64,000 nucleotides of DNA from an uncultured delta proteobacterium. Lineage in GTDB: Bacteria; Desulfobacterota; Syntrophorhabdia; Syntrophorhabdales; WCHB1-27. The number at the start of each line of letters is the position of its first letter. The first letter of the stretch is position 1. The position numbers were made by a program. Positions 36,001 to 39,000 of the stretch are shown here, one piece after another. Location of the stretch: NCBI GenBank assembly GCA_963810935.1, contig CAWEPK010000017.1:170484-234483 (forward strand), in the 5' to 3' direction.

Positions 36001-39000
36001 GCGCGCTCGCGCCTCGTCCATCGACCTTATCTTTCCCGGCCATGACGCCTTAATGCTGAGTGCGTACCCCAAGGTCGCAGACAACGTCACCAGGCTGGCA
36101 TAGCGGGCACAGGCAAAAACAGCGCCGACAAGTTACGACCTGATAACGATAAAGGCCATTATGAGGACGGCAAGGCCCACGCGGTAGTAAGCGAACACGT
36201 CGAGGGTGTGTTTCTTCAGGTAGTGGATCAGGAAGGTCAGGCTCGCCAGGCCCGCAATGAAGGCTGAAAACGTCCCCGCCGCAAAGACCGTGCTCTCGTC
36301 CCCCTCGAAGAGGGGCATGTGGTGCATCTCCAGCAGCGCAACGCCGATGACGACGGGTATGGACAAAAGAAAAGCAAAATCCACCGCCTCCCTCCTCCGC
36401 AGGCCCAGCATTATGCCCATCGTTATCGTGATGCCGCTGCGCGATACTCCGGGGACAAGGGCGACGGCCTGGGCCAGGCCGATAGCGAGAGCGAAGGTGT
36501 AGGTTATTTTGTGCTCGCCCAGGTGAAGCCTCTCCGCGAGGATCATAAAGATGGAGACGACCACCAGGCTGAAGACGGAGACAAGCGGCGTCCTCACATA
36601 ATACTCGATGAGGTCTTTGAAAAGGAGCCCGAAGACGACCGCAGGCACGGTCCCGAGCGCAATCTTCATCACCATTGAATCGCGCAGCGAGCGCGACTCC
36701 GTTACCTTGCGCAAGTCCTCCCGGCACATCTGGACGATCTTCCCCGTGTATATAGAGAGAAGGGCGAAGGCCGTGCCGAAGTGGACCATCACGTCATAAT
36801 CGAGCTTGTCCACGTTGCCCGAGCTGACTTTGAAGAGCCACGGCACGGCTATCAGGTGGGCGCTCGAGCTTACAGGCAGGAACTCCGTAACACCCTGCAT
36901 CGCTCCCACAAGGACGCTCTCTACTACGGTCATCTTGTAACATTACCTCCGTGGAGACGCGAGCCGGCAGCCGATCCGCAAGCCGGCACGGTCAGAGTAT
37001 ATCGCCGTTCGAAACGGCAATCAACCGTTGCGGCGCAGGCCGCCTCGCAGACGTGTAAATCCTGTCGTTCCGTGGTAATATTACTTACGGACATGGACTC
37101 AAGGAGAGACAGGCCATGACATTGAAGGAAAGGATCGAGCAGACCCTGACAGGCCTCAATCCGAGGCTCGAAAGCCTGGCAAACGGGTACGTCGAGCTGA
37201 TGGACACCGACGAGGCCAAAAAAACGGTCACCCTGAAATCGTTCGGCGGCAGGCTTCACTGATGCGGGATGAACGCCCTCAGTTTGTGGGCGGAAAAGCT
37301 GCTCAAGGAAGAGGTGCCGGAGATCGCGGAGGTCAATATCGTCGACGTCTGCCAGTGCGGCGTCGATGAGCCCTTGCGCCCGGCTTGATTTCCCACAACT
37401 TCATTTAATAAGCAAACTTTGCCGGGTGGGATATATGGCTCGCCCATCTGCTATGGACGGTTGATTAGCTCCGCAAGCGCCTCGTAAGGCTGAAAGCCGA
37501 CAAGCTTGCGATTGCCAAAGATGAAGGTCGGAACTGCTTCTATGCCCAAGGCGCGGGACCGTGTCCAATCGGCATCCACGGCCTGTTTGAATCTCCTGGA
37601 TAAGATAACTTGTCCGGCTTCCTCCTCAGGGAGACCGACGGATTCAGCAAGACGTATAAGTTCGCTCACCATGGCAATGTTCTTTCCTTCAACGAAATAG
37701 GCCCTGAAAACAGCGTGGTGGAACTCTTCTCCTTTGCCTTCCGACTCCGCCCACTTCGCAAGCTCCTGGGCGAGGCGGCTGTTGAATGTCATTGTGCGGC
37801 CGGATAAAGGCAGGGAGAGGTATTCCGCCACTTCCCTGAGGCGTTTCTGCATGGCGGAGATGTCCACATCCCTGCCGGCGAAGAGCTCTTCAAGGGCCAG
37901 TCCTCTTTCCGGCGTTTCAGGATGCAGAGGAAAGGCAAGCCATTTTACTTCTACGTCGTATTCCTTGATCAAGCGATCGGTACGGACCGTACTGAAATAG
38001 CACCACGGTCAGACGTAGTCGGAGAATACTTCAAGAATCGGGCGTTTTTCCATATGTCCCTGCCTATCCTATCCTGATCTCGCCTTTGTCCGCGTCGACC
38101 GTCACGTGGTCTCCATCCGACAGAAGGGCCAGCGAGTCGCCGTCTATGTTGTCGACCACCGGTATCGTGGTCCGGTAGAACTTCTCAGCCAGTATCGCCC
38201 CGGTGGCCAGTATCGGCTCCGTGAGCCGGTTGACGATTGCGGCAGGGGCTGTACCGCACCGCGCAAGCTCCAGCATGTAGACGGCGCCGCCGGTGGAGCC
38301 TCTCCCCTCGGGAAAGACCAGGACGGCGCCCGCTATCTTTCTGCCGTACAACTCGTGCCTCTTGTCGCTCACGATGCCCGTCCGGGGGTCGACTGCCCCG
38401 TAAAAGCCGAACGCCGATTTTGACACAACCGCCGGGCCGCTCGCCTTCCCGCGGGTGATGCCCCTTCCTTTCAAGACCCTTTGCCGTGGCACGGGACCGC
38501 CTCCGTTATGCAGCTTTACTTGGACGCCCGGGCCGCTGCGTCCACGCATTCCTGTATCGACCCGAAGATCACGTCCGATTGCACTTGCGACGGGGCATAG
38601 TAGGCGAACTTGCCCGAGTCCGTCATGATCGTCCTGAACTGCCATAGCTCCGTCGGGGATATCATCATGCACGTGTCGGAGGTGATCGTGGCCCCGGCAG
38701 CTTCTATGATCGATTTGTACCCCATCCGCCCGGCGAGCAGCTCCACGCTCTTATACGTGTATATCCAGAAATGGACGCCGTCTTTGACCCGCTTTCCTTC
38801 AAGCAGCTCCGCGACCCTTTTTACGTCCGTGATGCTGTAGTGGGGACAGCCCACCATGACCGCCTCGACATCGCCGCCGGCCACCGTGCACATCTCCCCC
38901 TTCGTCAGGTCCCTCTCCTCCCCGGAGAAGCTGAACGTTTCTTCCGGCGTATTCCCTCCGAACGCCTGCTCCACCGTCTGCGCTTCCGGCGTGATGCCCG

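Follow-up and report, generated by a model that had tools for sequence, protein, structure and literature searches.

A candidate Nfu-type selenoprotein with adjacent selenocysteine and cysteine in the Syntrophorhabdales

A gene of 48 codons in a 64,000-nucleotide stretch of DNA from an uncultured delta proteobacterium of the order Syntrophorhabdales (here called the window) stops at a TGA, and the same reading frame continues beyond it. Is this TGA the end of a small gene or is it read as selenocysteine (Sec), and what kind of protein would result? The ATG is at 37116, the first ORF (37116-37262) closes at the TGA, and the frame is then open to 37388. The survey's finding that the 48-residue call conceals a product of about 90 residues was borne out, as the frame encodes 90 residues, U49 among them. 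The read-through translation also contains the motif GGRLH-U-CGMNALSLW as described. In most of 29 loci the start codon, 48 codons before the TGA, has a GGAG/GAGG-like string in front of it. Coordinates of the features are given in Table 1. We consider it very probable that 37116-37388 on the forward strand is one 90-codon gene with a Sec-encoding TGA, a SECIS element and an Nfu-type product.

Table 1. Features of the Nfu-like selenoprotein gene (positions in the window)
Feature	Position	Strand	Details
Full CDS, Nfu-like selenoprotein	37116..37388	+	90 codons, Sec is codon 49; stop TGA 37386-37388
Shine-Dalgarno-like AAGGAGAG	37101..37108	+	GGAG ends 9 nt 5' of ATG
In-frame TGA, Sec reading (U49)	37260..37262	+	Aligned TGA in orthologues
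Cys50 codon, vicinal partner of Sec	37263..37265	+	TGC/TGT in 30/30 loci
Whole SECIS candidate: lower stem including UGA, internal loop, upper hairpin	37260..37305	+	MFE -17.2 kcal/mol, z -2.1
Upper SECIS hairpin CGCCC-U-CA-GUU-UG-U-GGGCG	37274..37292	+	MFE -8.7 kcal/mol, z -2.5; invariant core 37275-37290
C-terminal C79-x-C81 (VDVCQCG), lineage-specific extra Cys pair	37350..37358	+	Alignment of 30 loci

Conservation of the TGA and coding constraint beyond it

Orthologous loci were aligned around the Sec site. TGA occupies this site in 30/30 loci of the order and in 35/35 loci from a scan of all species, and none of these 65 rows has TAA, TAG or a Cys codon there. Further loci of a related form, in which Cys precedes Sec (the C-U form), likewise carry an in-frame TGA at the aligned site. 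Contigs from three more runs of the study behind this assembly, and one contig from another study (95-99% alike), have the TGA of U49 unchanged.

Codon-position entropies (positions 1/2/3, 30 loci) are 0.81/0.45/1.56 in codons +11 to +27 after the TGA and 0.86/0.61/1.48 upstream of it. To judge from these values, the substitution pattern is of the coding type on both sides of the TGA. Mean pairwise amino acid identity is 0.657 downstream versus 0.523 upstream. The other two frames past the TGA meet a stop within 26 codons in 29/30 and 25/30 loci. Together the alignments show that the TGA is conserved at one aligned position and that coding constraint continues after it. Near the C-terminus, C79 and C81 are both present in 7/30 aligned loci (L004-L010), two more loci (L011 and L027) have one of them, and the remainder have neither.

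In the entries examined, public databases mostly close the gene at residue 48 and, where they name it, label it a hypothetical protein. Among 15 of the 118 matches obtained from 1.84 billion database representatives were 48-residue truncations, two entries with tryptophan at the Sec site and one Sec-less paralogue; none of the 15 is an orthologue with Cys at the Sec position. A Cys form inside the Sec clade was found neither among these matches nor in the search of 96 genomes of the order. A word-index protein search returned a single fragment of 68 residues.

A SECIS-like hairpin after the TGA

From codon +4 to codon +10, third-position entropy drops to 0.40. Codons +5 to +9 (GCC, CTC, RGT, YTG, TGG) are frozen at synonymous sites in 30/30 loci, and it is these codons that form a hairpin. 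The codons at +5 (GCC), +6 (CTC) and +7 (RGT) are each fixed in 30/30 loci, while other invariant residues use two to five codons. The survey had seen a hairpin in 8/10 loci. Its existence was upheld and the count was too low, since the core GCCCUCRGUYUGUGGG is present in 30/30 loci. The reported distance of 14 nt after the UGA is right when the first paired base is counted from the U; the hairpin starts 11–12 nt 3' of the A. The stem consists of GCCC/GGGC, a U.U mismatch and C-G and A-U pairs below a GUU tip, and 92.9% of cells in the structure alignment are paired. These comparisons show a constraint at the RNA level that makes a SECIS-like hairpin.

The published bSECIS model calls for a loop of 3–9 nt with G in its first two positions, an upper stem of 4–16 bp, a UGA-to-loop distance of 16–37 nt and an MFE of at most -7.5 kcal/mol (PMC13188914, Fig. 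2). The window's hairpin agrees with the model on 4/4 criteria, with a 3–5 nt loop opening with G then U on a 7-pair upper stem, a UGA-to-loop distance of 18–19 nt and MFE values of -8.7 and -17.2 kcal/mol. In the two formate dehydrogenase genes of this genome, FdhA1 and FdhA2, a hairpin follows the UGA at a distance of 12 nt; the loop is GGUCU in FdhA1 and GGGCU in FdhA2. The FdhA1-type loop, C-GGUCU-G, occurs in 9/30 orthologues, those with Gly at codon +7. A pattern scan (TGA, spacer, stem, GGUCU-type loop) found 8 open-frame sites in this genome, including both FdhA genes, versus 0–2 sites in each of four control genomes. In the C-U form a hairpin lies 15 nt after the UGA.

Because the hairpin is nearly invariant, a covariation test was uninformative. 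4/7 pairs never vary, and the score was reached by 82/500 shuffles. The only changes in the core are between G-C and G-U or A-U and G-U, and the outermost pair is unpaired in 15/30 loci. Support for the hairpin is therefore support from sequence conservation, not covariation. The lower stem of the SECIS candidate is not kept in orthologues (L019, L060). Folding z-scores were weak for two orthologous segments (-0.83 and -0.10), and a first fold of a 76-nt segment of the window was no better than shuffles (z -0.45). Scanning 36000-39000 against Rfam (E <= 10) gave no SECIS family and only two chance lncRNA matches.

The internal TGA of the 48-codon gene is, in view of these comparisons, almost certainly read as selenocysteine. 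Sec insertion at UGA-49 is highly probable for the family as a whole, and somewhat less so for the organism of this assembly because its selB is broken (see below). When a ribosome reaches UGA-49, the downstream hairpin would recruit SelB with Sec-tRNA(Sec), Sec would be inserted, and 41 more codons would be translated.

An Nfu-type product with a Sec/Cys pair

The translated product, with C in place of U, matches Pfam NifU (PF01106) over residues 7-73 (E 4.7e-6), repeating the survey's result, at 27.1 bits versus a cut-off of 27.0. The same model scored 29.8 bits in a six-frame search of the genome. NCBIfam returned only TIGR03341 (NfuA; E 2e-4, 21 bits versus a cut-off of 269), and none of its selenoprotein models, including the HesB-like TIGR01911, matched the protein, again as reported earlier. 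An AF2 model (pLDDT 80) has a single domain with the predicted order helix, two strands, loop, helix, strand. Foldseek ranks 1–4, 7 and 8 for this model are Nfu/NifU-type structures (2z51, 1th5, 2m5o, 2jnv, 1veh and 1xhj; TM about 0.5-0.6). Profile comparison with 21 ordinary Nfu proteins (hhalign) gave 99.3% probability and E 5e-20. The predicted structure and the profile comparison show a product with the Nfu fold, homologous to ordinary Nfu. In a tree, the 45 rows of the Sec clade and the 21 rows of ordinary Nfu are split from each other, with support of 100/99. The selenoprotein and the genome's ordinary Nfu are paralogues.

The Sec had been described as sitting beside the Cys of the cluster-binding motif, which needs correction. 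No CxxC is present, its place being taken by R-L-H-U-C or, in the C-U form, R-L-C-U-G. Both hhalign and MAFFT align U with the second Cys of CxxC. In the window's form the first Cys has become Arg, the second is Sec, and a new Cys directly follows; in the C-U form Cys comes before Sec, not after it. Because CxxC is absent, cluster binding cannot be assumed. His directly precedes Sec in 26/30 loci. Since the sister form has R-L-C-U-G, selection has kept Sec and Cys side by side at the tip of the cluster-binding loop. The occurrence of both H-U-C and C-U forms shows selection for such a vicinal pair and not for one fixed motif.

The order search was reproduced: a TGA-bearing match is present in 39/96 genomes, this one included (E <= 4e-14). 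Two of these 39 rows have two TGA codons and one has an extra TAA. The stop-free second copies adjacent to the gene in two genomes (G026 and G017) were seen again. The gene had been called conserved through the order; its distribution is in fact patchy, with presence in 17/22, 0/2, 3/3 and 19/69 genomes of families f1 to f4, respectively. Nor is it limited to the order, as the C-U variant was found in 6 of about 290 genomes outside it, sampled across the phylum.

Function, alternative readings and known systems

What might such a protein do? The product would be a single-domain Nfu-type protein with vicinal Sec and Cys at the tip of the cluster-binding loop. Our best guess, offered tentatively, is that an Fe-S cluster is carried between two subunits with Sec and Cys as ligands, and a selenium ligand could allow faster or more oxidation-tolerant ligand exchange. 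Gene context gives hints of an Fe-S role. In family f3, 3/3 genomes have a radical SAM gene (AmmeMemoRadiSam type) immediately 5' of the Nfu-like gene and in the same orientation. In genus g4, 5 of the 6 loci (5 examined) have a TIGR03960-like radical SAM gene on their upstream side, in one case about 700 nt away, and in G306, a genome of another lineage, the cluster begins with SufC and SufB-like genes. Across the order the H-U-C form, including the window's gene, has no conserved neighbours. The BacA gene upstream of the window's gene is common to locus L006 only, and even members of the same genus lack the DsbA-like gene at this place.

The Nfu fold may alternatively serve as a small redox carrier, in which Sec and Cys cycle between selenol/thiol and selenenylsulfide and pass electrons to a partner with no Fe-S cluster involved. 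This is our second guess, possible though less likely than not. The replacement of both CxxC cysteines by a vicinal pair favors it, as does the placement of Cys on either side of Sec. A precedent for the pair is the C-terminal Gly-Cys-Sec-Gly (GCUG) of mammalian thioredoxin reductase. The neighborhood of the C-U form points the same way. There the gene belongs to a conserved three-gene cluster: in 7/7 genomes it comes after a fused FMN-reductase/ArsC-like (LMWPc) gene, and a DUF166 gene precedes that fusion in 6/7, the contig ending in the seventh. Flavodiiron, peroxiredoxin, ferritin-like, peroxidase and rubrerythrin-domain genes lie nearby. Small thiol proteins are the reductants of ArsC-type LMWPc enzymes. 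However, the window's H-U-C form is without the C-U cluster, this genome has no DUF166, and the radical SAM and Suf neighbors of other lineages favor Fe-S.

To our knowledge, the Nfu fold is known solely as an Fe-S cluster carrier. A more far-reaching proposal from the same comparisons, which we think unlikely though well worth stating, is that the fold here has either become a small selenol/thiol redox protein or is the first natural Fe-S carrier to hold its cluster via selenium. In the former case the C-U form could work as the dedicated partner of DUF166 and the fused flavin-reductase/ArsC-like enzyme, in a module that anaerobes use against oxidative stress or for Fe-S repair. DUF166 is itself a listed selenoprotein family with no assigned role, and the C-U form joins it and the reductase fusion in one conserved module.

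Binding or traffic of a metal(loid) or chalcogen (As, Hg, Cu, or Se, for example towards SelD) through His, Sec and Cys is improbable. Several selenoprotein families with CU or UC are metal-related, namely the 2Fe-2S/CopZ forms, the MerB-like SaoL, HgcA and MbdU (PMC13188914, Table 1), an ArsC-like domain adjoins the C-U form, and His usually precedes Sec. Against this, the His is not invariant, the ArsC-like matches are below their cut-offs, and the genes conserved beside the Nfu-like selenoprotein include none for resistance or transport.

Could the family be real and the gene silent in this organism, with selB inactivated? The survey had listed selA, selB, selD and tRNA-Sec as present. This holds for selA (above cut-off), selD (one copy of which itself contains a TGA) and three tRNA-Sec genes; selB is present but frameshifted. 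It is read in three frames, with three single-base coding indels relative to the congener G086. It is full-length in 3/3 congeners and in 15/21 other genomes of the family, and rpoC and valS of this genome are intact, all of which would fit a silent gene. On the other hand, two of the three indels share one context, GAGCT^GA, a sign that selB may carry a systematic error of sequencing or assembly. Downstream frames are also intact in all selenoprotein genes seen in this genome (two fdhA, selD, DsbA-like and Nfu-like). A silent gene seems improbable.

Two other views of the TGA are very improbable. A true stop, leaving a 48-residue peptide gene with a remnant or separate small ORF, or a pseudogene, agrees with the public gene calls and with an ATG at codon +3 in the window's lineage, but that ATG occurs in only 8/30 loci, the part after the TGA is better conserved than the part before and coding in the same frame, the codon is TGA in every row, and a SECIS-like hairpin lies at the correct distance. 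Reading as Trp, Cys or Gly through a changed code or suppressor tRNA could account for the tryptophan in two database entries (P0004 and P0006), but the simplest account of these entries is gene calling with a TGA=Trp table. TGA serves as a normal stop in this genome, closing 1095/2715 long frames and the Nfu-like gene itself; the genome has tRNA-Sec, selA and selD, and the hairpin resembles that of the FdhA genes.

If the Sec reading is true, the gene would found a new family in the prokaryotic selenoproteome. Of the 119 prokaryotic selenoprotein families and subfamilies in a 2026 review, not one has an Nfu domain, which agrees with the survey's placing of the protein outside published lists. 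NifU/Nfu is not mentioned in the deep-Sep paper or in the main text of BSepDB. A title search of the literature combining NifU/Nfu with selenoprotein terms gave no relevant title and no selenoproteome catalogue. The near-invariant 16-nt SECIS core would provide a handle to find and correct the 48-residue fragments in databases.

The closest known system is single-domain Nfu (PF01106), represented by Arabidopsis CnfU (2z51), the C-terminal domain of human NFU1 (2m5o) and the organism's own Nfu (G000:C10:271315-271515). Fold and length are the same, and the reactive residues occupy the same loop, ahead of helix 2, with Sec in the column of the second ligand Cys. In contrast to these proteins, the selenoprotein has Arg, Sec and a new vicinal Cys instead of CxxC, forms its own clade and barely reaches the Pfam threshold.

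The hairpin resembles the SECIS elements of the genome's own FdhA genes and selD in lying within the coding sequence, 11–12 nt after the UGA, and in an apical loop that opens with G-G/U. It differs from them in its short upper stem (4–5 pairs, a U.U mismatch and 2 pairs) and its near-invariant sequence across the family.

Adjacent Sec and Cys residues are found in (2Fe-2S)-binding CopZ forms 1 (GxUC) and 2 (CU), SaoL, HgcA, SaoC and KCU-star (PMC13188914, Table 1). These families share with the present protein a vicinal dipeptide in a Gly-rich loop, which there serves metal or cluster binding or selenenylsulfide formation. Their domains differ, none being Nfu, and their NCBIfam models have no match here. 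The HesB-like selenoprotein (TIGR01911), an A-type Fe-S carrier, is listed as experimentally verified (PMC13188914, Table 1). Both it and the Nfu-like protein are of the small scaffold or carrier type of Fe-S biogenesis with Sec for a conserved Cys, whereas the HesB-like fold and family are unrelated and its motif is UxGP. The HesB-like protein is the precedent for selenium in this pathway, and the Nfu-type protein would be the second Sec-bearing scaffold of Fe-S biogenesis after it, making a role of selenium in cluster handling testable.

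Reading frame and probable decoding of the in-frame TGA

The Sec-Nfu gene was called as a short ORF that ends at a TGA, with an open frame continuing past it. Read-through yields a product of 90 residues with U49 within GGRLH-U-CGMNALSLW. A GGAG lies 9 nt 5' of the ATG. ORF, TGA, frame and motif were re-read in the window, and the coordinates and motif reported in the survey's finding were correct. A six-frame search of the 96 genomes of the order Syntrophorhabdales reproduced its match counts as well. A match with an in-frame TGA was recovered from 39 genomes, including G000 (the genome of the window), at E <= 4e-14, together with two adjacent second copies without a stop. 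A weaker match (~33% identity) found in almost every genome of the order is ordinary Nfu.

The TGA occupies one aligned position in 30/30 fetched loci and is also present in 35/35 loci recovered when one genome of each species was scanned for the pattern. No TAA, TAG or Cys codon was observed at this position in either set. Substitutions past the TGA show the coding pattern of the same frame. Codons +11 to +27 have entropies of 0.81/0.45/1.56 at codon positions 1/2/3, compared with 0.86/0.61/1.48 on the 5' side. Mean pairwise identity is 0.657 downstream of the TGA versus 0.523 upstream, and the two alternative frames are closed in 29/30 and 25/30 loci. In G000 TGA acts as a normal stop, ending 1095 of 2715 long frames, and it is also the terminal stop of Sec-Nfu itself. 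Because the identical TGA recurs in contigs from three more runs of the same study and in a contig of another study that is 95-99% alike, an assembly error is excluded. Sec-Nfu is a real feature and very probably a selenoprotein gene.

Bacteria decode Sec by a standard route that employs SelB and an mRNA hairpin. In 30/30 Sec-Nfu loci synonymous positions are fixed in codons +5 GCC, +6 CTC, +7 AGT/GGT, +8 YTG and +9 TGG; elsewhere, each invariant residue is encoded by two to five different codons. Across codons +4 to +10, entropy at the third position is 0.40. The frozen stretch folds as GCCC-U-CR-GUY-UG-U-GGGY. The bacterial SECIS model given in the legend to Fig. 2 of PMC13188914 calls for a loop of 3-9 nt on an upper stem of 4-16 bp, with G within the first two positions of the loop and a UGA-to-loop distance of 16-37 nt. 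The Sec-Nfu hairpin, with a distance of 18-19 nt, agrees with this model in all four respects. Its pairs are nearly unvarying and show no real covariation, Rfam returned no match, and orthologous segments gave poor folding z-scores. The two TGA-containing FdhA genes of G000 have hairpins 12 nt past the UGA with loops GGUCU and GGGCU, and selD has one 11 nt past its UGA. The first of these loops is found exactly, as C-GGUCU-G, in 9/30 Sec-Nfu orthologues.

G000 was scanned for TGA followed, after 9-16 nt, by a stem of at least 4 bp that carries a loop of the FdhA/Sec-Nfu type. The scan returned 27 sites, 8 in open frames; four controls, one a reversal of the genome and three with shuffled triplets, gave 9-15 sites, 0-2 in open frames. 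Both FdhA genes, Sec-Nfu and two rhodanese-like frames are among the open-frame sites. The rhodanese-like frames are paralogous, lie outside the window (G000:C17:147157, + strand; C12:117833, - strand) and share the motif ...IVLY-C/R-A-U-VNDSTS...; 16 nt past the in-frame TGA, each has a hairpin that carries the same C-AGUUU-G loop. They probably belong to a listed rhodanese-type selenoprotein family. Two more candidate frames from the scan lie at C5:147513 and C10:351032.

The survey's finding had also credited the genome with Sec machinery. This holds for selA (above its profile cut-off), selD (two copies, one TGA-containing itself) and tRNA-Sec; selB is present but frame-split in the assembly. 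Three tRNA-Sec (tca) genes of ~71 bits each, on three contigs (C4:30323, C6:4921, C11:126660), may be strain copies, as assembly contamination is given as 7%. The coding part of selB differs from that of the congener G086 by three single-base indels, and two of these share a GAGCT^GA context. Single-frame full-length selB occurs in 3/3 congeners and 15/21 other genomes of the family, with partial matches above cut-off in three more. In G000 rpoC and valS are intact. The frame breaks reflect either systematic sequencing error or recent inactivation, and local sequencing error is the probable cause. Decoding of the Sec-Nfu UGA would proceed through SelB and the hairpin, a route well supported at the level of sequence.

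Coordinates of Sec-Nfu and related features
Feature	Position	Strand	Remarks
Called ORF of Sec-Nfu	37116-37262	+	48 codons, terminates at TGA 37260-37262
Read-through frame of Sec-Nfu	to TGA 37386-37388	+	41 further open codons past TGA 37260-37262
Candidate SECIS hairpin	37274-37292	+	MFE -8.7 kcal/mol, z -2.5
46-nt SECIS candidate, UGA included			MFE -17.2 kcal/mol, z -2.1
DsbA-like neighbour	37451-38053	-	Pfam DSBA, E 5e-23; in-frame TGA 38009-38011
Aconitase X pair (AcnX large part + swivel domain)	38064-39799	-	downstream of DsbA-like gene
selB of G000	C5:224288-226169 (fetched locus L001 1381-3394)		outside window; spread over three frames
Sec-less Nfu duplicate, G026	L018 1459-2067	-	directly upstream of Sec gene
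Sec-less Nfu duplicate, G017	L021 1800-2453	-	directly upstream of Sec gene

The Nfu domain and its two probable Sec-bearing forms

Pfam NifU matches Sec-Nfu residues 7-73 at threshold (27.1 vs 27.0 bits). The sole NCBIfam match is a weak NfuA, and no NCBIfam selenoprotein model matches. An AlphaFold model (input alignment of 30; pLDDT 80) predicts a helix followed by two strands, a loop, a helix and a strand. The PDB structures that match it best are CnfU, rice NifU-like domains, the human NFU1 C-terminal domain, mouse HIRIP5 and SE0630. When its profile was compared with that of 21 ordinary Nfu proteins, the probability was 99.3% (E 5e-20). In profile and MAFFT alignments the second Cys of the ordinary CxxC falls in the column of U, and the first in that of Arg46. 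Since G000 carries an ordinary Nfu too (C10:271315-271515, 104 bits), the Sec form is an extra paralogue. Sec-Nfu is very probably a new, Sec-containing variant of the Nfu domain.

Conservation throughout the order, as earlier proposed, was not observed. Distribution is patchy: 17/22 genomes in family f1, 0/2 in f2, 3/3 in f3 and 19/69 in f4. Outside the order the gene occurs in 6 of about 290 genomes (phylum sample of 301), of which five belong to family f50 and one to f16. Together with locus L060, these six carry the motif GGRL-C-U-G/A-G-P-D/E-V-ALSLW. This C-U form differs from the H-U-C form of the order in having Cys before Sec and a loop one residue longer, which is the loop length of ordinary Nfu. 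Its SECIS core is unaltered, 15 nt past the UGA.

A tree was built from 66 rows, with identical sequences dropped, just 21 ordinary Nfu and loci L082-L084 left out. Support for the split between the Sec clade (45 rows) and ordinary Nfu is 100/99. The Sec-less copies of G026 and G017 and the public entry P0005 branch within the H-U-C clade (98/94). In them A-N stands in place of U-C, with Cys five residues further on (NACCLW, NACSLW; Cys-Cys or Cys-Ser). They are derived duplicates, and because they nest inside the Sec clade, Sec was lost secondarily. Sec-Nfu genes from two f1 genomes, L013 (G085; a 3.2-kb contig) and L015 (G079), group tightly with family f4, which points to binning contamination or transfer.

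Gene neighbourhood and possible function

Neighbours of the H-U-C form vary by lineage. In the window the gene is flanked by a divergent BacA/UppP gene and the convergent DsbA-like gene. The called ORF of the latter is without the N-terminal active site; read through its TGA it begins MEKRPILEVFSDYV-U-PWC, a UxxC motif, and a hairpin starts directly past the UGA. By sequence it appears to belong with 'DsbA-like protein form 1', one of the listed families; it is a candidate second missed selenoprotein of the window. The two called ORFs of the adjoining aconitase X pair overlap by ~150 nt.

We tentatively favor an Nfu-like Fe-S cluster carrier as the function of Sec-Nfu, given its Nfu fold, its loop and the Cys-to-Sec column. 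The presence of radical SAM and Suf neighbours is consistent with this role. An AmmeMemoRadiSam radical SAM gene abuts Sec-Nfu upstream in 3/3 genomes of family f3, and 5/6 loci of genus g4 (the sixth, G093, is outside the fetched set) have a TIGR03960-like B12-binding radical SAM gene upstream in the same orientation, ~700 nt away in L024. Farther out from the C-U form, SufC and a SufB-like gene occur in G306.

A redox relay is an almost equally plausible role for Sec-Nfu. The first Cys of CxxC is lost, the Sec forms a vicinal pair with Cys possible on either side, and the C-U form has a flavin-reductase/ArsC-like partner. A fused FMN-reductase/LMWPc gene precedes it in 7/7 genomes, and the LMWPc part finds its best matches in arsenate reductases, with scores under the cut-offs. 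Ahead of the fusion, six of the seven have a DUF166 (DfsP-like) gene; the contig ends in the seventh. At a greater distance are genes for flavodiiron proteins (G148, G277), a peroxiredoxin fragment (G335), genes of ferritin-like and peroxidase type (G184) and a rubrerythrin-domain histidine kinase (L060, G306). The module order DUF166 -> FMN-reductase/ArsC-like fusion -> Nfu(C-U) extends over seven genomes of two families (L082-L087, L060, L061). DUF166 is itself among the listed selenoprotein families, and G000 has none. Metal(loid) or chalcogen handling is an unlikely function.

Comparison with known selenoproteins

New selenoprotein families still turn up regularly. Sec-Nfu bears on Fe-S biogenesis and has two informative forms, one tied to a conserved gene module. 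Among the public protein matches listed it appears as 48-residue fragments named 'hypothetical protein'. A full-text literature search, judged by titles, returned no relevant Nfu/NifU selenoprotein title and no selenoproteome catalogue, and passage searches of the BSepDB and deep-Sep main texts returned no mention of NifU/Nfu. Table 1 of a 2026 review (PMC13188914) gives 119 families and subfamilies with domain identifiers; NifU, Nfu, PF01106 and the H-U-C motif are not among them, so that for this table the survey was right to place NifU/Nfu outside the listed families. The entries of PMC13188914 nearest to Sec-Nfu are the HesB-like protein, CU and GxUC families.
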